Counted from the first letter of the stretch, positions 1 to 28,718 are shown. The stretch: 36,581 nucleotides of DNA from Candidatus Saccharimonadia bacterium (GCA_036518915.1 DATDME010000031.1:1-36581), one strand, 5' to 3'. The notes: a model not told the origin generated them from the letters alone. Made by a program: numbers and translations.

Positions 1-813
1 CCACACCAAATGCATCACCGGCTGGTCGTGCTTGTCCAGCTTGACCTTGCCGTCTTCCACGGTCTTCTCAAAGTGCGGGAAGCCGTCGGTCCACTCCACC
101 GGGTAGATGCGGCTGGAGCCAGGTAAGATGTTGCCCTGTTCACCGTTGAGGTCGAGGGTGGCCAGCTGGGTCTTGCCCCGCAGAATGAAGATGTTGCCAT
201 GGGGTACCACGTGGACATTCCCGGTGTTCTTGAGCTTGACACTGAAGGTAGCCGGCAGAAACTCGTAGACGTTGTGGTCACTCGCCAGGGAGGCCAAAGA
301 CACTTGGCGCTTGGCTCCGGCCACGTGGGCGTCAAGCAGCACGAGCACGGCGCTGCCACCGGCAATGCTGTTGGTGTTGCCGCTCTGGCGAGTGTCATCC
401 CCTTCCCGGGTGAACACCACGGCGTAGTAATAGCCAAAGGCCGCCGTCTTGGGCACGGTAATGGTCATGTGGACGGTTTGCCAGACGTTGTTGGGGGCGT
501 CAAACACCGTTTTGTCGAACTTGGCCCAGTCAAAGTAGTCATCCCCCGATTCCCGGTCAAGGAGGCGGGGCTTACCTTCGTCACCGAAGGCAGCGAACTT
601 CATGAGGGAGACCTTGAGGCGGACGGTTCCCCCACTGTTTTGTTTGACCTTAATGTCGGTGCTGACGGTTGAGCCCGGGTCGGTGGTGAGGTTAATCGGC
701 AGCGGTGAGGTTACCAGGTTGAGTGGTTTGGCGTCGGCGGCCACGGCCCAAGCCGACCCCGTCCCAAAAGACAGGGCAAGGCCCAGCAGTAATACCAAGA
801 GTCCACGTTTCAT
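1..813 (-). CDS. Secreted protein, C-terminus cut by window edge (271 codons visible); two beta-sandwich-like modules (DUF916/DUF3324-like layout, unverified)
   Basis: Not in the ORF track because no stop lies inside the window. Hand translation from ATG 811-813 stays open to nt 1: MKRGLLVLLLGLALSFGTGSAWA|VAADAKPLNLVTSPLPINLTTDPGSTVSTDIKVKQNSGG...FGYYYAVVFTREGD...KLKNTGNVHVVPHGNIFILRGK...ILPGSSRIYPVEW...HLVW. Clear signal peptide with AWA cleavage motif. Confidence 0.7.
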   Translation of the reverse strand, partial: MKRGLLVLLLGLALSFGTGSAWAVAADAKPLNLVTSPLPINLTTDPGSTVSTDIKVKQNSGGTVRLKVSLMKFAAFGDEGKPRLLDRESGDDYFDWAKFDKTVFDAPNNVWQTVHMTITVPKTAAFGYYYAVVFTREGDDTRQSGNTNSIAGGSAVLVLLDAHVAGAKRQVSLASLASDHNVYEFLPATFSVKLKNTGNVHVVPHGNIFILRGKTQLATLDLNGEQGNILPGSSRIYPVEWTDGFPHFEKTVEDGKVKLDKHDQPVMHLVW

Positions 814-849
814 GCAACCACTTCCGTTTTCAATACTGGCACATCCGGC

Positions 850-1911
850 CTAGAAATTGCCAGCACCTACGACCGTAATCGTGTCAGTGTAGTCGGAGCC
901 GGCCGGCGTAGCGCCGGAGATTGCCGCCCGCTCAATTAGGGTTATGACGTCACCATTGGCCGTCGCCGGCGAAGCACCCGTACAAGCGGCAATCGGCTGG
1001 AAGTTCGCGCTCAAGGTACCGCCGGCCGAGGTTGTTGTGCCGTTGTACTCCGCATCAATTGCTAAGGTACAGCCGCCCGCGGCGTCAGTTGTTAGATCGG
1101 TATCAAGCACGTAGCCTTCGGTACCAGAAGTGAGCGTAGAGGGCGCGCCATCAATCGTGCCGGCCGTCGGGATAGTATACGACGCACTCGTTGAACGCAA
1201 ACCTTGCTGCGTATCTTTCGCCCAAGCAATCCAACCGCCTTTGGCGTTCGTCGTCACCGTCACTGTCCGCCCAGCGGTCGATTTTATACTGGCCGGGTCA
1301 AGATTGCTCGAAAACGTATCAGTATTACCTGATAGTGTGAAGATAAAGGTCGGTGGAACCACCGCAGTTACTACGATCTGGTCATCGGTAATGTTAGACA
1401 AAGCGATATCAGAGTGGTCAAGCGTCGCGCTACCAGATGTTTGGGTTTCCACGGAAGCCTGCTGGCTGGTGGCTGCGCCAGCAGCCGTAGTCAGCGTGTT
1501 CGTGCCCGAGAAATTAAAGCAGTACAACGTGGTACTTGAAGTTAAGTCACCGGAGCCAAACGTCACCACGTTGGCCGGACTGGTCGCACTGCTAGCCGTT
1601 GCGATGCTCGGCCAGGCCGTCGAGCCGGCCGGCAAGTTGGTGGTTGATACCGTCCAGTTAGCGGCCGTGGTATTAACGGTGTAGGTTGACGGGAACGTAA
1701 TGATTACCTTAGCCACACCCGCCGAGGCCGTGCTCGGCTTGGCACAAATCGTGCCGCCGGTCGCGGTATTAATCTTCATGCGATCCAACCGAATGTAAGC
1801 CGACTTAAAGTCAGCCTGAGCACCCATTGGCACAAATTGGAGGAATGAGCTCAGCACTAGTCCGACAACGGGAATAACACGAGCAGCGGTCCGACTTTTC
1901 CAGATCTGCAT
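850..1911 (-). CDS. Secreted beta-rich surface protein, paralogue B (353 aa)
   Basis: Track ORF 850..1968. I place the start at ATG 1911 (MQIWKSRTAARVIPVVGLVLSSFLQFVPMGAQA signal peptide), preceded by GAGG and by a TTGCAT-N18-TACTAT promoter that overlaps the longer ORF's 5' end. Homologous over its full length to 2047..3111. Ends SDYTDTITVVGAGNF. Confidence 0.8.
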   Translation of the reverse strand: MQIWKSRTAARVIPVVGLVLSSFLQFVPMGAQADFKSAYIRLDRMKINTATGGTICAKPSTASAGVAKVIITFPSTYTVNTTAANWTVSTTNLPAGSTAWPSIATASSATSPANVVTFGSGDLTSSTTLYCFNFSGTNTLTTAAGAATSQQASVETQTSGSATLDHSDIALSNITDDQIVVTAVVPPTFIFTLSGNTDTFSSNLDPASIKSTAGRTVTVTTNAKGGWIAWAKDTQQGLRSTSASYTIPTAGTIDGAPSTLTSGTEGYVLDTDLTTDAAGGCTLAIDAEYNGTTTSAGGTLSANFQPIAACTGASPATANGDVITLIERAAISGATPAGSDYTDTITVVGAGNF

Positions 1912-1942
1912 GGATACCTCAATCACTCTACTAACTAGAGCT

Positions 1943-1972
1943 ATAGTACCCGAAAGCATAAGCAACATGCAA
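1943..1972 (-). promoter_or_regulatory. Putative sigma70-type promoter of paralogue B (TTGCAT-N18-TACTAT)
   Basis: Minus strand: -35 TTGCAT (1967-1972), 18-nt spacer, -10 TACTAT (1943-1948), about 30 nt upstream of ATG 1911. Confidence 0.4.
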
Positions 1973-2046
1973 GCAGTTTATGACTCGCCTGTTGCCCCAA
2001 GCTGGGGAAAACCGCTGATTGTCATCTGGTTATGTGACGCTTTGCT

Positions 2047-3111
2047 TTAGAAATTACCCGCTGCCACCACCGTGATTGTGTCAGTGTAGTCGGAACCGGC
2101 CGGCGTACCACCAGCGATGGACGCCCGCTCAATCAGGGTAATGACGTCGCCGTTGGAGGTGGCTGGAGCCGTGCCGGTGCAAGCCGCCACTGGCTGGAAG
2201 TTAGCACTTAAGGTACCGCCGGCCGAAGTTGTCGCGCCATTGTACTCCGCGTCAATTGCGACCGTGCAGCCGCCGGCCGCGTCAGTTGTCATGTCGGCGT
2301 CCAGGACGTAACCCTCAGAGTTGGTGGCCAGGGTACTCGGCGTGCCGTCGACCGTACCGGAAGTGGGAATGGTGTAGTTCGCCGAGGCCGAGAACAATCC
2401 TTGCTGACTATCCTTCGCCCAGGCAATCCATCCGCCTTTGGCGTTGGTCGTAATGGAGAACGTTCGGCCAGCCGTAGACTTAATGCTCGCTGGGTCAAGG
2501 TTCGACGGGAAGGTATCTGTATTACCCGACAGGGCAAAGACGAAGGTCGGCGGAACCACCGCGGACACCACAATCTGGTCATCGGTGATGAGCGCCACGG
2601 CATAGTTGGTTTCATCAATCACCGCCGCGCCGGCCGTGCGGGTGTGCATGAACCCAGTGAGCGAGTTACCCGCCGAACCATTAGTGAGCGTGTTCGTGCC
2701 GCTAAAGTTAAAACAGTACAGCGTACCCACCGTCAGGTCGTTTGAGGGGAACGTCACCGTGTGGCCGCTCACAGCCGTAGCGGTATTGATGCCCGGCCAA
2801 GCGGTCGAACCCGCCGGCAGGTTGGAGGTGGTAACCGTCCAGTTAGACGCCGTGCCGTTCACCACAAAGTCGGTACCAGTTTGCGTCGGGAAGGTGATTT
2901 GGAAATCCGCCTCGGTGGCCGTCGTCCGTGGTTGGGCGCAAATCGTCCCGCCGGTCGCGGTCAACTCTTTCATGCGGTCAAGCCGCAGGTACGATTGCGT
3001 AAACTGTGGTGGCGGGGCAGCCGAAACCGTCCCACTGAACATGGGCGCAAAAACCTCAGCCGACAGCGCAGCAATCGTAGCGATGGCAAGTTTTAGTTTT
3101 TGGTTCGACAT
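2047..3111 (-). CDS. Secreted beta-rich surface protein, paralogue A (354 aa)
   Basis: Signal-peptide-like N-terminus MSNQKLKLAIATIAALSAEVFAPMFSGTVSA. Conserved mature N-terminus SYLRLDRMK..TATGGTICA, and a C-terminal module nearly identical to paralogue B. Ends SDYTDTITVVAAGNF. Confidence 0.85.
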   Translation of the reverse strand: MSNQKLKLAIATIAALSAEVFAPMFSGTVSAAPPPQFTQSYLRLDRMKELTATGGTICAQPRTTATEADFQITFPTQTGTDFVVNGTASNWTVTTSNLPAGSTAWPGINTATAVSGHTVTFPSNDLTVGTLYCFNFSGTNTLTNGSAGNSLTGFMHTRTAGAAVIDETNYAVALITDDQIVVSAVVPPTFVFALSGNTDTFPSNLDPASIKSTAGRTFSITTNAKGGWIAWAKDSQQGLFSASANYTIPTSGTVDGTPSTLATNSEGYVLDADMTTDAAGGCTVAIDAEYNGATTSAGGTLSANFQPVAACTGTAPATSNGDVITLIERASIAGGTPAGSDYTDTITVVAAGNF

Positions 3112-3192
3112 TTTGTTTTGTTTCGTTTATGACAGCCCGGATTTTTTTTGGGCTGCCCAAGTATTTTGTGTGTTTTGAAATTACTTAAGCTT

Positions 3193-3222
3193 ACAGTACC
3201 TGATACGCTACACCGCTGTCAA
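3193..3222 (-). promoter_or_regulatory. Putative promoter of paralogue A (TTGACA-N18-TACTGT)
   Basis: Minus strand: -35 TTGACA (3217-3222), 18-nt spacer, -10 TACTGT (3193-3198), in the 140-nt gap between 3252..4307 and 2047..3111. Confidence 0.4.
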
Positions 3223-3251
3223 ACCCAAAGTTTTCCACACGCCAGATGAAC

Positions 3252-4307
3252 CTAAAACGCCCCGCTGGCCACCATGGTGATAGTCTCGGTGTAATCAGCT
3301 GAGGCTGGCGTCAGCGGTTTGGTTTTGGCTTTCAGCAACAGCGAGCCCCGGCCGGCCGTTACCGCCGCCGGCGTAGTGAAGATTTCGCGGATAACCGTAT
3401 CCACCACGCCCACGTTGGCACCGCTGCCGTCATACGGTGATACCAGCGCCAGCGGCCCGCCGCTCGTTTGCGTGGCGCTGGCGCCCTGGGCCCCAAAACC
3501 TTCCGTCAGCGCCGACAAATCACCGGTCACCGAGCCAATCGTGTACGTGCTAGACGCACTCGTCAGGCCGCTGTTATGGCCATTCAAGTAAACTGTGCCG
3601 CCATTTTCACCGTTGGTGTCCAGCGTCACCCAAATCTTAACCGGCGAATCAGTCACCGTGCTCACCGGCAGGCCTCCAAAATTCACAATGTATGGCGGAT
3701 TCGTACTGGTATCCGTCGCTGAGACGTCAATGTCAAACGTCAGCGTCGGATCGACCGTCGCCGCGGTGGCCACGGGCCCGTAGCCGCTCTCCGTGAACAC
3801 CCCGCGGTAGGCCTTAGCCTTCACCGAGTACACCGTACTGCGGTGCAGGCCCCGGATCAACTGGCCCGAGCCGCTGCCCCAGCCAGCGTAGGTTTGGTAA
3901 TCTGCGAACGTCAGGGTACTGCCAACGGTAAAATCGCTCTTAACATACTGAGTGGTGGTAAACCCGTCAGACGAAATCGCAATGGCAAACTTAGCGTCAG
4001 ACGGATTGTTTTGCGGATCCAACTGCACCAATAGCTTGTTGTACCAGTTAGCTGAGTTGGTCAAGGTTACAATTGGCACGTTAGCCTGTTTCTCATAGTT
4101 TTCCCCAGCCCCAGCCGCATAATGCGCCGACGTGCCCTTGCCCTGGAGCTCGCCCGCCGAGCCGTTGATCCGGTAATTCGTTGAGCCCGAATCGGCCGTG
4201 CCGCCCGACCCAAACCCGTACGAATTCAACTGGTAGGTACTACTCGCTGGCAAAGCCGCCAGCAGCAACCAAAATCCGACCGCGATTGTCCGCCACGTTT
4301 GCATCAT
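3252..4307 (-). CDS. Secreted protein: Gly/Ser-rich N-terminus, FN3-like module, then a C-terminal module related to paralogues A/B
   Basis: Signal peptide MMQTWRTIAVGFWLLLAALPASS. FN3-like stretch (PIVTLTNSANWYNKLLVQLDPQNNPSDAKFAIAISSDGF...GLHRSTVYSVKAKAYRGVFTESGYG). C-terminal part aligns by eye with A/B (PTLTFDI..., TEGFGAQ, ADYTETITMVASGAF). Its ATG overlaps the upstream stop (ATGA, 4304-4307). Confidence 0.8.
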   Translation of the reverse strand: MMQTWRTIAVGFWLLLAALPASSTYQLNSYGFGSGGTADSGSTNYRINGSAGELQGKGTSAHYAAGAGENYEKQANVPIVTLTNSANWYNKLLVQLDPQNNPSDAKFAIAISSDGFTTTQYVKSDFTVGSTLTFADYQTYAGWGSGSGQLIRGLHRSTVYSVKAKAYRGVFTESGYGPVATAATVDPTLTFDIDVSATDTSTNPPYIVNFGGLPVSTVTDSPVKIWVTLDTNGENGGTVYLNGHNSGLTSASSTYTIGSVTGDLSALTEGFGAQGASATQTSGGPLALVSPYDGSGANVGVVDTVIREIFTTPAAVTAGRGSLLLKAKTKPLTPASADYTETITMVASGAF

Positions 4308-5086
4308 TGCCTCCAGTGTATCGTGGGCAGAATGGTTTGTAGATAGCTCTCCAAATCATCCTTGCCTGGGTTATCCGTGGTCAGCGATACCGCAATTTCC
4401 CGGCCCTTGTGCGCCCAAAACAACGTGCGCTCAGATTTATCTGGCTTCACAAAGATCGTGGCCGCCTCACCCATGAGCGTCGTCTTGACGGGTGTGTATT
4501 TATCGGAACTAATACTGCGAAACTTAAAGCTTGAATCGTCATCAAGCAGATTTGAAGGCAGGGCGCTCACCTCAATCGCAATTTGCCGGCCATAACTGGT
4601 GCGGCTCGAGAGCACGTAGGCCTCGAGCGCGTGCACGCTGCCCTTTGACCGGCCCAGCTGGTCAAACACGCCGGGATATTTTAGCTCCACAAATTGCCCA
4701 CCCAGCGTATTCACCGCCGGCACCGGCGCATTTGACGCCTGCAGCTGGGCGAGCTTGAGGGTTTGGGCTGAGCTCACCGGTCCATCCACAAACTTCAAAC
4801 CCAAAATAATCAGGATGCCCAAAAGTACGCCCACCGTCATCATGGCCATGAGCCAGGCCACCCGGCCGCCCCACTTGGCGCCCCGCCGCTTAGGCCGGGC
4901 CTCGGCCGCGGGTTTGGCCTCGGCCGCCTCCGCCACCCCGGCCTCGGCCGCGGGCGGCGCCATCACCGCCGCGACCGACGCGTCGCCCTCAGCCGCTGAC
5001 ACCGTCTCACCATACAGCGCCGTAGCGTGCACGGGCGCCGGCGCCATCGACGGAGTCGCCCCTGGAGCTGACCAGCGCTCAATCAT
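4304..5086 (-). CDS. Single-pass membrane protein: Ala/Pro-rich cytoplasmic N-terminus, TM helix, ~170-aa ectodomain
   Basis: Track ORF 4304..5197. I choose ATG 5084-5086 (MIERWSAPG...), which overlaps the TGA of the upstream gene (TGATG). TM segment WLMAMMTVGVLLGILIILGL follows KRRGAKWGGR. Confidence 0.65.
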   Translation of the reverse strand: MIERWSAPGATPSMAPAPVHATALYGETVSAAEGDASVAAVMAPPAAEAGVAEAAEAKPAAEARPKRRGAKWGGRVAWLMAMMTVGVLLGILIILGLKFVDGPVSSAQTLKLAQLQASNAPVPAVNTLGGQFVELKYPGVFDQLGRSKGSVHALEAYVLSSRTSYGRQIAIEVSALPSNLLDDDSSFKFRSISSDKYTPVKTTLMGEAATIFVKPDKSERTLFWAHKGREIAVSLTTDNPGKDDLESYLQTILPTIHWRQ

Positions 5087-6060
5087 CAGGCCAACGCTTC
5101 CAGCTGCCGCTGCATAATTTTTTTCTCCCGGCGTCCACCGAGCCAGAACGATGCCACCATCAAGAGCACCACCACCCACAACGGCCACAGCAGCCACTGC
5201 GTAGTGATGCTGCTTGCCGCCGCCTTAGCCGGGTTCGTGTCCGCCTTGGCCGAATTTACAATGGTGGTCAGCTGCAAGTAAGCCGTGTGCCCCGCCGCGT
5301 CCGCCGCCCGAATAATCAAGGGGTACGACCCCAAATAGCCCGTACCGGATTTTTGGTAGGTGTGTTTGACCGTAAACGCTCCCGGCGCCACCCGCGTCTG
5401 CACATCGGTCGTGCCGTCGCCCCAATCCACGCTCACCGCGTACGGCGCCGAGCCACCCACCAGCTCAACCGGCCAAACAATCTCCTGACCCGGCTCGCTC
5501 CCGTGGTAATAACTTTCAGATTGTATGATCAGCTCCGATGAAAATCCCAACCCGCCCGGCGGCTGGTTCAACGTCACCGTCACCGTGGGAGAACTTGGCC
5601 CCACCTGATCGAGCGTGTTGTAGGGCAAAGCCGTCAGGTCATTTTTACCCACCACCAGGTCAACCGGGACAGAAAATTTCCCATCCGCCCCGCACAGCAC
5701 ACTGCCCACCAAAATGCCGTTGGAAAATATCTTCACTAAGCTTTTTGCCTGGCACGTCCCGCTAACCGTCACCGGGTTCGTCGCAAACGCTTGCCCGTTT
5801 GACGGCGAAAGAATGGTCGACGGTTTCGTGGGGCGCGGGCCTGGCACCACCGCCTTTACGGTATACGATCCGCTACAGCTCGGCGTACTCGGCACCCCGC
5901 AGTCGCTATCGGCTTTAGACGACCAGCTGACGCTAGCCAGTAAAATCCCCACTGCCAAGACCAAAAACGTCAGCAGTGCATACGACGTCTGGCGATGACT
6001 CACCAGCCGCCACGACAGCGAATGATGGCTATACCTCGGAAACACAAGCATTAATCCCAT
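5086..6060 (-). CDS. Bitopic membrane protein with Ig-like and PKD-type domains (N- and C-terminal TM helices)
   Basis: N-terminal TM YALLTFLVLAVGILLASVSW. Ig-like segment (ILSPSNGQAFATNPVTVSGTC...GKFSVPVDLVVGKNDLTA). PKD signature PYAVSVDWGDGTT...HTYQKSGTGY. C-terminal TM WLLWPLWVVVLLMVASFWL followed by GGRREKK. Confidence 0.75.
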   Translation of the reverse strand: MGLMLVFPRYSHHSLSWRLVSHRQTSYALLTFLVLAVGILLASVSWSSKADSDCGVPSTPSCSGSYTVKAVVPGPRPTKPSTILSPSNGQAFATNPVTVSGTCQAKSLVKIFSNGILVGSVLCGADGKFSVPVDLVVGKNDLTALPYNTLDQVGPSSPTVTVTLNQPPGGLGFSSELIIQSESYYHGSEPGQEIVWPVELVGGSAPYAVSVDWGDGTTDVQTRVAPGAFTVKHTYQKSGTGYLGSYPLIIRAADAAGHTAYLQLTTIVNSAKADTNPAKAAASSITTQWLLWPLWVVVLLMVASFWLGGRREKKIMQRQLEALA

Positions 6061-6070
6061 CTTAACATAA

Positions 6071-6097
6071 ACGGGTTCCGCCCGTCGCGGAACCCGT
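6071..6097 (-). terminator. Strong hairpin (11-bp perfect stem, 5-nt loop) after 6157..6741
   Basis: acgggttccgc/ccgtc/gcggaacccgt. On the minus strand it is followed by UUAUGUU. Sits 60 nt downstream of the stop at 6157. Confidence 0.55.
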
Positions 6098-6156
6098 CAG
6101 CCACACGTTAGACATACAGCCCGCACAAAACAAAACCTGCCTATTCGCGCCGTTGG

Positions 6157-6741
6157 TTACTGAGCAGACGCTGGCTCAGGCGAGGCCACCGGCGCAGCAT
6201 TCAGGCCCGTCATTGAACCCAGCGCCTCTAGGATAATTGGCGTCTCACGGTTAATAATCGTCATGCCAGCGTTCTGGTCGGCACAGTCATTCTGAGGAAA
6301 CTGATAAACAAAATCGTACTGGCCGACCGTCGCCACCACATTGGCGCCCAGCGTCACCTTACCCGATGGCACATAGGTGCCGGCCGGATACCGCGTGATA
6401 GTGCCCAGGGCGTTATTGCCAGCCTGGCACGCCGCGCCCAACTTTGCCAAATCGGCCGCCGAGAGGCCCACCACATCAGCCGACTGCATCGCGTAGCTCA
6501 CCAACGGCAGCTCGGCCGCCAACGGCAATGCCGCCTGCACACCCCAGCCGTTAATGGCCAGCAACTGGCTGCCGTTGTGCAGGTCCGTGGCCGGCGTGCC
6601 GTGCGACACTTGCTCCTCCGCCACCACTTTGTGCACGTGGTCCCAAACGTAACCAGTGACGGTCCCCAGCAGCGCTACGGCCACCGCGACACCAAAAACC
6701 GGCACTAAACCGCGTACTCCGCCGAGCACTTTCGTAATCAC
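6157..6741 (-). CDS. Membrane-anchored hypothetical protein (194 aa)
   Basis: Track ORF 6157..6870. AGGAGG lies 5 nt upstream of GTG 6739-6741, giving (M)ITKVLGGVRGLVPVFGVAVAVALLGTV (TM anchor). No recognisable family. Confidence 0.6.
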   Translation of the reverse strand: MITKVLGGVRGLVPVFGVAVAVALLGTVTGYVWDHVHKVVAEEQVSHGTPATDLHNGSQLLAINGWGVQAALPLAAELPLVSYAMQSADVVGLSAADLAKLGAACQAGNNALGTITRYPAGTYVPSGKVTLGANVVATVGQYDFVYQFPQNDCADQNAGMTIINRETPIILEALGSMTGLNAAPVASPEPASAQ

Positions 6742-6857
6742 CCGCACCTCCTGATGCAACTTTTTACACCACCGTGTTACATCAAGCTTATGCTTTGCCG
6801 GGGGGTTCGTCAATGTATAGTCCGCGCAAAACCAAACCCACCATTGCTCTTCGCTAG

Positions 6858-6886
6858 TTGTGCCGCCCAACCGTAAGCGCTATGAT
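6858..6886 (+). promoter_or_regulatory. Putative promoter of 6923..8047 (TTGTGC-N17-TATGAT)
   Basis: -35 at 6858-6863 and -10 at 6881-6886, in the divergent 181-nt intergenic region. Confidence 0.35.
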
Positions 6887-6922
6887 AAACCCAAGTATCA
6901 AGTGAGCGCGAGATAATCCGAC

Positions 6923-8047
6923 ATGGCTGACGAGCCAAAAACTCCTCCGGCGGGCGAATCCAACCCGACCAATATTTCCCCAGCGCCCGCCGATGTCGCC
7001 GACAAGCCGGCCGAGGATGCTGCGGCCGAACAGCCGCTGGCCGCGTCCAAGCACGTTATGCCCGCGGATCCGCTACCCGACGGTACCGTCCCCACCATTA
7101 TCCAAGAGGGCGAGAGCCACCGCGCAGTGCCCAAATCCAAGGCCTCACTGACGCGCGTTTACCGCAAAGCCGACATCCTGACCACCGTTCTCACCGCCGG
7201 CGGAGTGATCTTGGCCATCCTCATCATCTCGGGGATTTACCTGTATTTTGCCAACCGCAACAAGCCCAAGCTCGCCACGCCCAAAGTCACCGCACTCGAC
7301 CAAGCCGACCTCAATAAACTGGGCGCGTTCTTCCAGGGCAACGCCAGCGGCAGCGACACGGAAGTTCTCACCATCAACTCCTCCACGCTGTTCAAAAACC
7401 GCGTCGCGACTAACTCAGACCTCAAAGTGGTAGGCGGCGCGGAAATCACCGGCTCCACCATCCTGAGCGACCTCAGCGTCACCAAAACCGCCAACCTCGG
7501 CATCGTCAACATCAACGGCCAGCTGGTCGCCAGTGGTCCGGCCAACATCAAAGGCAACGCCCTGTTTGGCGCCGGCGCTAGCGTCAACGGCAACTTGGCC
7601 GTCACCGGCACCGGCTCATTCGGCGGCACGCTCTCGGCCGGTACGCTCAACGTCACAAACCTCACCGTTACCGGCACGCTCAACCTGGCCGGCCATATCT
7701 CGCTCGCCGGGCAAAACCCCAGCGCCTCCCCCGGCTCTGAGGCCGGTGCCGGCGCCACCGCCACCGCCGACGGCAACGACGCCGCCGGCACCGTCACTGT
7801 TAATACCGGCACCGTCGCCGCGCAGCTCCCACCGGTTGGCGGCCTGCTCGTAAAAGTCACCTTCCGCACCCCCTACCCACGCGCGCCCAAGGTTGTCATC
7901 AGCGCCGACAGCCAAGCCTCCGCCGCTCTGCAGTATTACGTCCTCAAAACCGCCAACGATTTTACCATCGGCGTGTATTCCTCAAGCCCCTATCCCCTAC
8001 CCAGCTCAAACACCAGCTACTCGTTTGATTACTGGGTAGTGCAGTAG
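6923..8047 (+). CDS. Membrane-anchored protein with G/N/T/V-rich beta-helix-type repeats and a compact C-terminal domain
   Basis: Pro/Ala-rich N-terminus, then TM LTTVLTAGGVILAILIISGIYLYF. Repeats such as LKVVGGAEITGSTILSDLSVTKTANLGIVNINGQLVASGPANIKGNALFGAGASVNGNLAVTGTGSFGGTLSAGTLNVTNLTVTGTLNLAG. C-terminus VKVTFRTPYPRAPKVVISADS...FTIGVYSS...YSFDYWVVQ. Confidence 0.8.
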   Translation: MADEPKTPPAGESNPTNISPAPADVADKPAEDAAAEQPLAASKHVMPADPLPDGTVPTIIQEGESHRAVPKSKASLTRVYRKADILTTVLTAGGVILAILIISGIYLYFANRNKPKLATPKVTALDQADLNKLGAFFQGNASGSDTEVLTINSSTLFKNRVATNSDLKVVGGAEITGSTILSDLSVTKTANLGIVNINGQLVASGPANIKGNALFGAGASVNGNLAVTGTGSFGGTLSAGTLNVTNLTVTGTLNLAGHISLAGQNPSASPGSEAGAGATATADGNDAAGTVTVNTGTVAAQLPPVGGLLVKVTFRTPYPRAPKVVISADSQASAALQYYVLKTANDFTIGVYSSSPYPLPSSNTSYSFDYWVVQ

Positions 8048-8060
8048 CTAGTCAACAATC

Positions 8061-8085
8061 AAAAACCGCCCCAAAGGGCGGCTTT
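8061..8085. terminator. Bidirectional intrinsic terminator between convergent genes
   Basis: aaaaa-CCGCCC-caaa-GGGCGG-cttt. 6-bp GC stem with a tetraloop, A-run on one side and T-run on the other. Confidence 0.6.
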
Positions 8086-8750: not shown

Positions 8751-8963
8751 TCAGTTCGTGACCGATGTCGATCCGCAGCTCTCACAGATATAACACGACC
8801 CGGCGGGCCGCATCTTCGTGCCGCAGGTGGAGCACATGGGGGCATCAGCCCCCGCCGCCGGCTGGCCGGCCGGCGAAGGCTCCGGGGTGTTGGCCACCTG
8901 AGACTCCATACGCCGCCTCGTGATCGCCACCAACACGTCAAACAGGAAGCCTGTGAGGTCCAT
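8751..8963 (-). CDS. Small zinc-ribbon protein (70 aa), resembling the C-terminal tail of class II ribonucleotide reductase
   Basis: C-x2-C-x10-C-x2-C-x2-C: PMCSTCGTKMRPAGSCYICESCGSTS, preceded by a Pro/Ala linker. Confidence 0.45.
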   Translation of the reverse strand: MDLTGFLFDVLVAITRRRMESQVANTPEPSPAGQPAAGADAPMCSTCGTKMRPAGSCYICESCGSTSVTN

Positions 8964-13164: not shown

Positions 13165-13392
13165 GGGGGTCTCCTACTAAAAATCCATCCGGACTTGTGC
13201 AGGGACCCGCGTAACCCGCGGGCGGTACCACCCTGCTTTCCAGATGGACACTTCATTTACCGCCGATATCGTTCGGGGCAGACGTCAGATTCTACTGGGC
13301 CACTGGCCGTTCTTTCTGCTGCTTCGCGGTTGATGGCCGCTCACGGCCCGCACCGGGCCAGCGCATTACCAGATTGTTAACTTATTATATCA
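13165..13392 (-). promoter_or_regulatory. T-box leader (tRNA-Ile sensing) with extended -10 promoter, upstream of ileS
   Basis: Minus strand: TGATATAAT (13384-13392). T-box core AGCAGGGUGGUACCGCC (core at 13221-13233). Antiterminator-type fold GCAGGG[UGGUACCG]CCCGCG-GGUUA-CGCGGG-U-CCCUGC (13199-13236). Candidate specifier AUC-A (13332-13334). U5 at 13179-13183, then SD and GTG. Confidence 0.8.
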
Positions 13393-13471
13393 CAATTTAT
13401 ACCAGATGGTAGGGCACCTCCGGACCCCAGGTCATGGACCGCCAGGGTCCGGAGAGTTAGATGAGCACGAC

Positions 13472-14210
13472 TCAAGTCATCGGCGCGGTCCAGCCTAGTG
13501 CATCGGCCACCTGCTGAACCGCCCAATCCGCATTACGCGCTAGGTTTTGAATGGCCCGACGACCCTCCTTGATAGCCTCGGTAACTTTAGGTATATTCCA
13601 AACAACACCTTCGCTCTCAAGCCACTGACAGACATCCGACACCGTCTGATATTTCGTCCGCCGAACCACCAGGAACATCCAGAGCCGAAGCACGTGCAGG
13701 AGCTGCGAATTCGCGGCTTTCGGCTCCGGCCATTTTTTGGTACCTTGACACCCGCGAACTGGTAAAACTTCATGAGCTCAGCCAAAATGGCAGCCGGATT
13801 AGTCGTAAACGTTGGCTTGGCCTCTCTGGCTTCTGGCATGAGATTGCGGACAATTGCTAAGAGTTCTCCGACGAGCCGTGTCCACGGCTGCTGGGAGCTT
13901 TCTAGCTCGCCAGTAACCTTTCCGCGACGCGCTGTCACGCGCGCTGCCGACCAGTCAGCCCCCCACGCCGATTCAACTCCGCTGCCAGCCGCCCTGGGCT
14001 CATGCCACAGCACTGCAACATTACATGGATGGCAACCGACTGGAGCATGTGTGCGATACTGCCTCTACGGGCCGGCTGGGCCCACAGTCCTGAGACTGTC
14101 AAGCATATGCCACCACTCCTCATCTGCTCAACCATCCAGGCCGACACGCCACTAAACACGTCGTTAAATACATCGTCACTTACAGGAGTCTCAGTATTAG
14201 GCTTTGTCAC
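13472..14210 (-). pseudogene. Coding region of ~245 codons split over three frames by two -1 shifts; HTH-like segments; possible mobile-element remnant
   Basis: Track ORFs 13935..14210, 13540..14013 and 13472..13693 are successive -1 frames. They join sensibly at G6 (13959-13964: ...LAAELNRRGG|ADWSAARVTARRGK...) and at A6 (13733-13738: ...FAGVKVPKK|WPEPKAANSQLLHV...). Flanked by a 13-bp inverted repeat. Confidence 0.4.
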
Positions 14211-14291
14211 GATGTCGCTCCTAGCCGTCTCGAGTCGTGCTTCGGGATATCCGACTTGATGTTTATACCTAGCCTGAAGCCGTTTTGCAAG

Positions 14292-28281: not shown

Positions 28282-28437
28282 TTATATGGCAGTATACTTG
28301 CGAGCGAGAAAGTAAAAGTTAGGATCGCTGCGGCGCACAAAGCCTATCGGTGGCTCCGGGGTACGGCAGGTCATGCGGGCACGGTACACCGGCCGCCGAC
28401 TCGGTTGCAGCTTCAACCAGCGAATGAGGGTTTTCAT
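28282..28437 (-). CDS. Possible 51-aa basic micro-ORF coupled to the wHTH gene
   Basis: Below the track cut-off. The ATG overlaps the wHTH stop (ATATGA). MKTLIRWLKLQPSRRPVYRARMTCRTPEPPIGFVRRSDPNFYFLARKYTAI. No homology recognised. Confidence 0.2.
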   Translation of the reverse strand: MKTLIRWLKLQPSRRPVYRARMTCRTPEPPIGFVRRSDPNFYFLARKYTAI

Positions 28438-28718
28438 ATCGTCCGGCTCCCCCGCCGCGCTTGGCTCTTGAGTACCAAGCCCTGCAGCTCGCGGTAGAGC
28501 ATAAACTTCGGGTTGGCCGCGTAAACCTTGGAGTTACCCTCTTCTTTGACCGTCACAAAACCGACATCCGCGAGCCGTTTTAGCTCTCTCTGCACATTGC
28601 CGGGATCCTCTTTGATCATCTTAGCGAGGCCCCGCACATGCATGCGGAAGTCGGGATACTTGGTATATATTACGATAATTTTGCGTCGGGTTTTCGACGT
28701 GATGAACAGCTCTAGCAT
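28434..28718 (-). CDS. Winged-helix (ArsR/MarR-like) DNA-binding protein
   Basis: LFITSKTRRKIIVIYTKYPDFRMHVRGLAKMIKEDPGNVQRELKRLADVGFVTVKEEGNSKVYAANP is the typical wHTH layout. Locally AT-rich. Confidence 0.75.
   Translation of the reverse strand: MLELFITSKTRRKIIVIYTKYPDFRMHVRGLAKMIKEDPGNVQRELKRLADVGFVTVKEEGNSKVYAANPKFMLYRELQGLVLKSQARRGSRTI

Follow-up and report, generated by a model that had tools for sequence, protein, structure and literature searches.

A probable divergent Pam pilus operon in a Candidatus Saccharimonadia bacterium

A 36,581-nucleotide stretch of DNA from a Candidatus Saccharimonadia bacterium (GCA_036518915.1, DATDME010000031.1:1-36581; the whole stretch is referred to below as the window) begins with an island of eight genes, denoted g1 to g8 (nt 1-8047), whose products all appear to be secreted or anchored in the membrane. 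In the original prediction, made from the sequence of the window, the island was considered a candidate undescribed surface module, with a remote resemblance to the WxL-domain loci of Firmicutes. The question raised by this locus is whether its products belong to a system that has already been characterized and, if so, how that system would operate. The comparisons described here indicate that nt 1-8047 very probably comprise most of a divergent, "type-2" operon for the Pam pilus of a Saccharimonadia (Candidate Phyla Radiation (CPR)/Patescibacteria) bacterium. This assignment is carried by the homology of g6, g1, g2/g3, g8 and the N-terminal part of g4 to components of pam loci, by the predicted folds of the products, and by conserved synteny. 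The island can no longer be called undescribed, as it matches the Pam system (bioRxiv 10.64898/2026.03.03.709456; NCBIfam NF058578, NF058579 and NF058581), and the partners in the original prediction are largely assigned to this characterized system.

All eight open reading frames (ORFs) are present within nt 1-8047 at the positions given originally, with g1-g7 located on the minus strand and g8 in the divergent orientation. ORF calls, a hydropathy scan and searches of Pfam and NCBIfam bear out the original description of eight genes, each product of which is either membrane-anchored or equipped with a signal peptide, and no enzyme domain was found among g1-g8 in the two databases. The hydropathy scan detected N-terminal signal-like segments in g1, g2 and g3; a single transmembrane (TM) segment in each of g5 (residues 74-106), g7 (4-33) and g8 (82-112); and both N-terminal and C-terminal hydrophobic segments in g6, the latter being a TM segment at residues 287-309. 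The signal-like segment of g4, IAVGFWLLLAALPASS, was recognized by eye and falls under the threshold of the scan.

The Pam pilus was described in Candidatus Mycosynbacter amalyticus, an ultrasmall parasitic CPR bacterium, where cryo-electron microscopy (cryo-EM) of the filaments identified two pilins, PamA and PamB, that are joined by donor-strand exchange, the inter-domain linker of one subunit filling the C-terminal domain of its neighbor (bioRxiv 10.64898/2026.03.03.709456). The operon also encodes PamC and PamD, PapD/FimC-like chaperones with a C-terminal TM helix; PamE, a further pilin; PamT, a single-domain tip pilin; and the TM-anchored PamR, which is proposed to terminate and anchor the fiber and whose N-terminal strand is predicted to be inserted into the last pilin (bioRxiv 10.64898/2026.03.03.709456). 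The system is usher-less, its conserved neighbors are a "tail-fibre-like protein" and ATP synthase genes, and the conservation of PamA and PamB is highest in the linker and the C-terminal domain; WxL is not mentioned in the preprint (bioRxiv 10.64898/2026.03.03.709456). NCBIfam models derived from this work represent PamR (NF058578, cut-off 300 bits), PamT (NF058579, 240 bits) and the pilin C-terminal domain (NF058581, 55 bits).

Related loci were collected by searching genome contigs with the g6-family alignment, and the best 80 of the 108 loci found (L001-L080) were compared. Those organized like the locus in the window are referred to as window-type. In most of the loci L021-L080 with enough flanking sequence, the order is ATP synthase, g8-like gene (divergent), TM protein, PamT, PamA-like pilin, PamE, chaperone, PamR, and these loci are referred to as canonical. 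The M. amalyticus locus itself (CP045921, WP_260763277-289) lies outside the 80 loci, and canonical loci such as L039 and L024, both above the NCBIfam cut-offs for PamT and PamR, served as proxies for it. L039 passes the cut-offs of the Pam models, with 299.6 bits against 240 for PamT, 387.9 against 300 for PamR, and 136 against 55 for the pilin in the PamE position (NF058581). The proteins in the PamT, PamE and other pilin positions of L039 and L024 score 83-158 bits against NF058581, and the PamA-like protein of L039, which consists of 418 amino acids (aa), scores 18 bits.

Homologs of Pam components among the products

The g6 product is a full-length PamR homolog that, by its sequence, belongs to a divergent subfamily. 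It matches NF058578 ("pilus system RbmA-like protein PamR") over positions 2-295 of the 297 in the profile (E 8.4e-86, 287.5 bits), and consists of RbmA-like tandem immunoglobulin (Ig)/FnIII domains followed by the C-terminal TM helix. This protein had been read as a combination of Ig-like and PKD domains; Pfam supports the Ig-like part (Big_6/Glucodextran_B) but calls no PKD domain, and VDWGDG shows no variation among the family members. The mature N-terminal consensus of the PamR family, GxYTVxAVVPGPRP, is nearly invariant, and the corresponding strand of g6 reads YTVKAVVPGP. Comparison by eye suggests that this consensus resembles the pilin linker IVVSAVVPP, which would fit a strand competing for the same groove.

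The protein encoded by g1 is interrupted by the window start. Its full-length homologs consist of 347-366 aa, and one of these, P0243, which is 76% identical to g1, ends in a TM helix and an RRRKR tail. The part of g1 in the window contains the signal peptide and two beta-sandwich domains; judging from the homologs, the TM helix and the basic tail would be encoded beyond the window start. An AlphaFold (AF2) model of P0243 (predicted local distance difference test score (pLDDT) 88.9) consists of two beta-sandwiches and a C-terminal helix (residues 317-353), which confirms the tandem beta-sandwich architecture originally predicted for g1. In phmmer searches, g1 is homologous to the product of the gene located just upstream of PamR, that is, in the PamD position, in canonical loci (E 1e-12 to 1e-19). 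The top Foldseek matches of the g1-family model are the structures of Enterococcus faecium WxLIP, free (9i1y) and bound to a long WxL protein (9i25), with E 3e-9, followed by Vibrio cholerae RbmA and, with E ~1e-7, the chaperones CsuC, CfaA and YadV; the TM-scores are 0.33-0.42 to WxLIP and 0.37/0.53 to CsuC. A search of the PDB with the g1-family profile yielded no sequence match. We consider g1 a candidate TM-anchored two-sandwich Pam chaperone, homologous in sequence to the PamD-position protein and similar in its modeled fold to WxLIP and CsuC. The earlier notion that the island contains no known assembly machinery is contradicted by this membrane-anchored PapD/WxLIP-like chaperone candidate.

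The same structural matches can be taken to favor a remote WxL-type (Csc/WxL) complex, in which g1 would act as a WxLIP and hold g2-g4 on the wall as a non-polymerizing adhesin coat. In its 337-365 aa, WxLIP combines a signal peptide with a pair of Ig-like domains and a TM helix, and it is predicted to insert a beta-hairpin strand into the WxL domain (PMC10599100). The g1 family and WxLIP are alike in size, architecture and fold, WxLIP yields the best E-value in Foldseek, and beta-strand complementation of a partner is predicted for WxLIP. Both systems are monoderm, Sec-dependent and usher-less, and the clusters are parallel in make-up, with one short, single-domain protein, at least one long protein, a common C-terminal binding domain and an anchor. 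However, PF13731, PF06030 and PF11797, the Pfam families of WxL, DUF916 and DUF3324, were found neither in g1-g8 nor in 145 relatives (47 relatives of g1, 58 window-type pilins and 40 canonical pilins). Likewise, the mature pilins contain no W-x-L motif, none of the eight proteins contains LPx[TSA]G, and there is no LPxTG partner. The TM-scores to WxLIP are modest and do not exceed those to CsuC, and direct comparison of the sequences identifies homologs among the Pam components, whose relatives are filamentous in cryo-EM, whereas WxL proteins are described as peptidoglycan-bound rather than as polymerized filaments. On these sequence criteria, WxL membership of the locus was rejected; the likeness to WxL/DUF916-DUF3324 loci noted originally survives at the level of the fold, and for g1 only. 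We regard such a WxL-type complex as unlikely and the Pam assignment as the better account of the g1 data.

The pilin candidates g2 and g3 are 70% identical across the whole mature protein and belong to the same family profile; g2 consists of 353 aa (35.7 kDa, pI 4.6) and contains four conserved Cys. In the AlphaFold (AF2) model of g3 (pLDDT 90.9), the signal peptide (residues 1-~34) is followed by an N-terminal beta-sandwich (35-175), a linker (176-189) to which no strand is assigned in the monomer, and a C-terminal Ig-like domain (190-354). Conservation in the g2/g3 family is highest in the linker and the C-terminal domain, and the linker DDQIVVSAVVPP ranks first of all segments, with a mean top-residue frequency of 0.79 and an entropy of 0.73 versus 1.24 for the N-terminal domain. 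In profile-profile comparison with hhalign, g2/g3 match the ~350-aa PamE-type pilins of canonical loci colinearly over both domains, both when our own alignments are used (95.2%, E 2.6e-8) and when independent tool alignments are used (90.4%, E 1.4e-6, 250 columns). The motifs noted originally align with conserved positions of the canonical Pam C-terminal domain, namely, VVPPTF.F with VPPyL.F, TNAKGGW with TNa..GY, EGYVLD with sQFGiNL, and the terminal DYTDTITV...F with GvYttTltY...F. Neither g3 and g8 nor the four profiles used as queries (A2, A3, A4 and A5) retrieved anything useful from the PDB sequences.

Located between the two domains, the linker DDQIVVSAVVPP is, on the conservation analysis, a candidate donor strand. 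The original prediction tentatively assigned a docking or strand-exchange role to a different element, the mature N-terminus S/A-Y-[LI]-RLDRMK; in the g3 model, this segment is an ordinary strand of the N-terminal domain, and it has a counterpart in canonical pilins. The RLDRMK strand was set aside in favor of the inter-domain linker, the equivalent of which is the strand donated in PamA and PamB. The more general idea that the island works by beta-strand exchange is probably correct.

The third pilin-like protein, g4, shares with g2/g3 only the last ~136 residues (32% identity, E 2e-8 in BLASTP; C-terminal domain match 98.4%). The description of g2, g3 and g4 as three paralogs with a common C-terminal module holds for this terminal region, but not for the motifs PPTF.F.LSG, TTNAKGGWIAWAKD and EGYVLD, which are confined to g2/g3. 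The g4 protein is composed of a PamT-like N-terminal segment (residues 21-74), an extra middle domain of ~110 residues, a linker-like segment and the C-terminal domain in common with g2/g3. The g4 family matches canonical PamT in hhalign (96.9%, E 1.8e-10), and its profile matches, via the N-terminal segment, more than 40 proteins of ~240-325 aa in the PamT position of canonical loci (E < 1e-3). By these sequence comparisons, g4 is a candidate PamT-related tip subunit; it has no match among PHROGs.

Gene order in related loci

With a single exception, the 80 loci come from contigs titled Saccharimonadia, Saccharibacteria, Patescibacteria or Parcubacteria, or carrying no taxon ("bacterium", "uncultured bacterium"). 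The exception, L051 (JBPOIN010000146.1), is a metagenome-assembled genome (MAG) labeled Pseudomonadota that contains a canonical PamR and chaperone; this label probably reflects an error in binning and not the presence of the genes outside the CPR. Database searches identified 1422 relatives of g3, 335 of g6 and 1149 of g1, nearly all of them unnamed, and the named ones are from Candidatus Saccharimonadia.

Conservation of the neighborhood in relatives, proposed originally as a check, was confirmed. The order rodA-rplU-g8(divergent)-[g7]-g6-g5-g4-g3-g2-g1 is shared by 17 loci from different Saccharimonadia species (L001-L009, L011-L017 and L019, some of them clipped by contig ends), and three further loci are slightly altered: g8 follows g6 in L010, and tblastn detects no g5 in L018 and L020. 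Recurrence of this order in about 20 loci indicates that the cluster is not due to chance. A second, shorter chaperone-like gene often follows g1 in the related loci and, in the genome analyzed here, would lie beyond the window edge. ATP synthase genes adjoin 25 of the canonical loci and L018, and are absent beside L001-L017 and L019 and in the window. L002, which is of the window type, and L024, which is canonical, are located ~12 kb apart on the same contig of one Saccharimonadales MAG (CAZSRA010000001.1), which implies that the two types are paralogous systems, not merely drifted orthologs.

Compared with the described Pam system, the locus in the window has in common the full-length PamR homolog; the TM-anchored two-sandwich chaperone; the PamT-type N-terminal segment; pilins of two domains, the C-terminal one Ig-like, with a conserved linker between them and an aromatic residue at the terminus; a divergent tail-fibre-like neighbor; the lack of an usher, sortase and ATPase; and a Saccharimonadia host. 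Several observations, however, weigh against placing it in this system. The gene order differs, with PamR-g5-g4-g3-g2-chaperone(s) in the window versus PamT-PamA-PamE-PamD-PamR(-PamB-PamC) in the described operon; the PamT-like protein is enlarged by its extra domain; a ~55-kDa PamA-type pilin is missing; the bitopic g5 is an addition; and the locus adjoins rplU and rodA, not ATP synthase. With respect to the equivalog cut-offs, g6 is just under that of PamR, and g4 (residues 16-81) is far under that of PamT ("CPR-type pilus protein PamT"; 28.9 bits), whereas NF058581 matches none of g2, g3 and g4 at E <= 1. The link between the window pilins and Pam is significant in profile-profile comparison only, and was made through the proxy loci rather than through the M. 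amalyticus proteins or the PamA/PamB structures; a hidden Markov model of the canonical Pam C-terminal domain built from the loci detects window-type pilins below threshold, at consistent positions (best E 1.5e-3). Foldseek comparison of the g3 model to a PDB set without the PamA/PamB structures 25PZ and 25QA retrieved generic tandem Ig folds (integrin calf/thigh, cohesin dyads, MSCRAMMs). Finally, the Pam assembly pathway is itself largely an AlphaFold-based model in the preprint (bioRxiv 10.64898/2026.03.03.709456), and for the subtype found here, the pilus reading is drawn from genes and predicted folds.

This last point, along with the generic adhesin and cohesin folds matched by the pilin model and the acidic composition of g2-g4, in which Thr, Ser, Ala and Gly account for 46-51% of the residues as in many surface-layer proteins, would also be compatible with a non-filamentous envelope layer, either an S-layer-like or wall-associated coat or independent adhesins co-located through shared export and regulation. 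Such an arrangement seems very improbable, given that the PamR anchor, the chaperone-fold partner and the PamT-like subunit are kept together in a fixed order, that the most conserved parts are the linker and the C-terminal domain and not the exposed surfaces, and that the N-terminus of PamR appears similar to the pilin linker. The assignment to a divergent Pam pilus operon is therefore retained.

Among the related loci, several additional genes were observed. After the two chaperone-like genes of several window-type loci, namely, L007 (18271-20954), L010 (18699-20945) and L011 (17658-20930), there is a gene for a secreted protein of very large size (over 750-1090 aa) that might be a further fiber or adhesin component; the corresponding region is not covered by the window. 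In the canonical locus L024, a gene for a Vgb-like beta-propeller protein of 586 aa is inserted between those for the pilins, and one for a giant protein of 2452 aa follows PamR. Four other canonical loci (L028, L040, L043 and L059) contain a second PamR homolog 4-7 kb downstream of the first, which suggests tandem pam modules.

Accessory genes and surroundings of the locus

The coordinates of the genes and of the other features of the locus are listed in Table 1.

Table 1. Features of the candidate Pam pilus locus, in window coordinates
Feature	Position (nt)	Strand	Description
g1	1-813	-	Truncated by the window start; the N-terminal 271 residues of a candidate PamC/PamD-like chaperone of ~352 aa
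g2	850-1911	-	Putative two-domain Pam-type pilin, close paralog of g3; the mechanical ORF reaches 1968
g3	2047-3111	-	Putative two-domain Pam-type pilin, 354 aa
g3 inter-domain linker	2545-2586	-	Residues 176-189, ITDDQIVVSAVVPP; candidate donor strand
g4	3252-4307	-	PamT-related pilin, 351 aa; candidate tip subunit
g5	4304-5086	-	Bitopic membrane protein, conserved
g6	5086-6060	-	PamR homolog; candidate pilus terminator and membrane anchor
g6 mature N-terminal strand	5830-5871	-	GSYTVKAVVPGPRP; similar to the pilin linker
g7	6157-6741	-	GTG start after AGGAGG; N-terminally anchored protein, 194 aa, 2 Cys
g8	6923-8047	+	TM anchor and beta-helix region; "tail-fibre-like" pam neighbor
Hairpin	8062-8085	.	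GC-rich, 10 bp, between convergent g8 and rplU (terminator scan)

Judging by sequence similarity and position, g8 is the "tail-fibre-like" neighbor that is conserved beside pam operons. Its homologs occupy the same divergent position in 19 window-type and ~30 canonical loci, with E 6e-32 for the protein from L039; its match to a tail-fiber PHROG is weak (E 2.5e-4). The strong hairpin next to g8 is likely a bidirectional terminator that closes the locus.

The g5 protein consists of an Ala/Pro-rich cytoplasmic N-terminus, the TM segment and an outer domain of ~150 residues, and has no match in Pfam, NCBIfam or PHROGs. According to phmmer, its gene separates PamR from g4 in 19 of the 20 window-type loci, accompanied in L010 by g8, which is inserted there between g6 and g5; L014 breaks off within g4. 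Equivalence of g5 to the TM protein encoded upstream of PamT in canonical loci was considered and dropped, the hhalign match being weak (12%). In the window, g6, g5 and g4 are translationally coupled, as the start codon of g5 overlaps the stop codon of g6 (TGATG) and the stop codon of g5 overlaps the start codon of g4 (ATGA); GGAGG precedes g4.

Besides the window, g7 is present in only three of the 20 related loci. It lacks matches in Pfam, NCBIfam and PHROGs, and the hhalign comparison yielded none either. It has a start signal of its own (AGGAGG-N6-GTG), and the gap between g7 and g6 (~6075-6100, minus strand) contains a perfect hairpin of 10 bp, CGGGTTCCGC...GCGGAACCCG, that is rich in GC and precedes TTTATGTT. 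Probably, g7 is an accessory gene that forms its own transcription unit, separate from the pam genes. The promoter scan detected no sigma-70-like sites, a type of scan that is uninformative for CPR bacteria.

The part of the window between 10 and 36 kb is occupied by housekeeping genes, including those for IleRS, FtsZ, FtsA, Map, Adk, HisRS, RelA/SpoT, RecJ, SecDF, PriA, Def and Fmt, and neither tRNA genes nor Rfam matches were found in the window. Three intervals in this region and next to the locus contain additional ORFs. The gap between rplU and rodA includes a 70-aa ORF (8751-8963, minus strand) with a terminal CxxC...CxxC zinc-ribbon-like motif, CSTCGTKMRPAGSCYICESCG, and may represent a genuine small gene. 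A stretch of ~1.1 kb (13165-14290), flanked by the IleRS gene and a small yggT-like ORF, contains overlapping ORFs only (for example, 13540-14013), with neither a Pfam match among them nor a tRNA or Rfam match. Finally, a 94-aa ORF between recJ and secF (28434-28718, minus strand) resembles, by eye, a small winged-helix (ArsR/PadR-like) regulator.

Proposed assembly and related systems

The original description of the island as a dedicated surface module that lacks genes for a sortase, an usher and type IV pili stands: the larger ORFs of the window include no sortase, and no match to the usher family was found in the window. We infer from the model in the preprint and from the features of the locus how these proteins would form a filament, in which order the subunits would be added, which strand would be donated, and that the fiber would act in host contact. 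All subunits would be exported by Sec. The membrane-held g1 and the second chaperone-like paralog would then donate a strand to each pilin and thereby cap its C-terminal Ig-like domain, which is presumably incomplete, until the linker DDQIVVSAVVPP of an incoming g2 or g3 subunit fills the C-terminal-domain groove of the previous subunit by donor-strand exchange. The PamT-related g4 would start the fiber at its tip, and the near-identical g2 and g3 would form the shaft. Growth would end when PamR (g6) inserts its pilin-linker-like strand, YTVKAVVPGP, into the last pilin, while its TM helix holds the fiber in the cytoplasmic membrane. An usher, sortase or ATPase would not be required, and g5, g7 and g8 would be envelope accessories. 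The fiber would probably mediate contact with a bacterial host.

Donor-strand exchange of this kind recalls the chaperone-usher pili, both the classical (Pap/Fim) and the archaic (Csu, CFA/I) ones. In those pili, as inferred here for the window proteins, an Ig-like pilin domain lacking a strand is completed by the chaperone and then by the neighboring subunit; the chaperone has a similar two-domain fold, and the subunits are stabilized by disulfides. A classical chaperone-usher pilus with an usher encoded outside the window would account for the fold matches of the g1 family to CsuC, CfaA and YadV and for the weak Foldseek matches of the g3 model to SafDAA and CfaB. Saccharimonadia, however, are monoderm and have no outer membrane, and neither the window nor the 10-kb flanks of those window-type loci that were examined contain a gene for an usher-sized beta-barrel. 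Moreover, the g1-family chaperone is TM-anchored; no Pfam family, including PapD_N and PapD_C, passes the cut-off for g1 or its relatives, and the likeness is confined to the fold; the window-type pilins have an extra N-terminal domain and would donate an internal linker, not an N-terminal extension; and the fiber would end in a dedicated TM anchor, PamR. A chaperone-usher pilus is accordingly extremely improbable here, and the Pam-type mechanism outlined above is preferred.

Given that the Pam class has already been published, what is added here is a subtype that is both divergent and widespread. Pam pili, the abundant fibers with which a cultivated parasitic CPR bacterium contacts its host, represent a pilus class that operates without usher, sortase or ATPase. 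The occurrence of a second, sequence-divergent operon type, widespread in environmental Saccharimonadia, implies that NF058579 and NF058581 under-detect the system. Both Pam types can be present in one genome, where they may serve different hosts or functions, and the modular tip subunit is a candidate determinant of host specificity. The similarity between the modeled fold of g1 and WxLIP makes a deep relationship between Pam and WxL possible, and provides a testable bridge from CPR pili to the poorly understood WxL clusters of Gram-positive gut bacteria. A broader scenario can be put forward tentatively, although we consider it somewhat doubtful: the window-type loci would represent a second paralogous Pam lineage, with its own anchor, enlarged tip and chaperone pair, and both Pam and WxL/WxLIP would derive from one ancient "chaperone-only" strand-complementation system of monoderms. 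If such a common origin is real, WxL clusters might polymerize, or else Pam chaperones might tether subunits to the wall.

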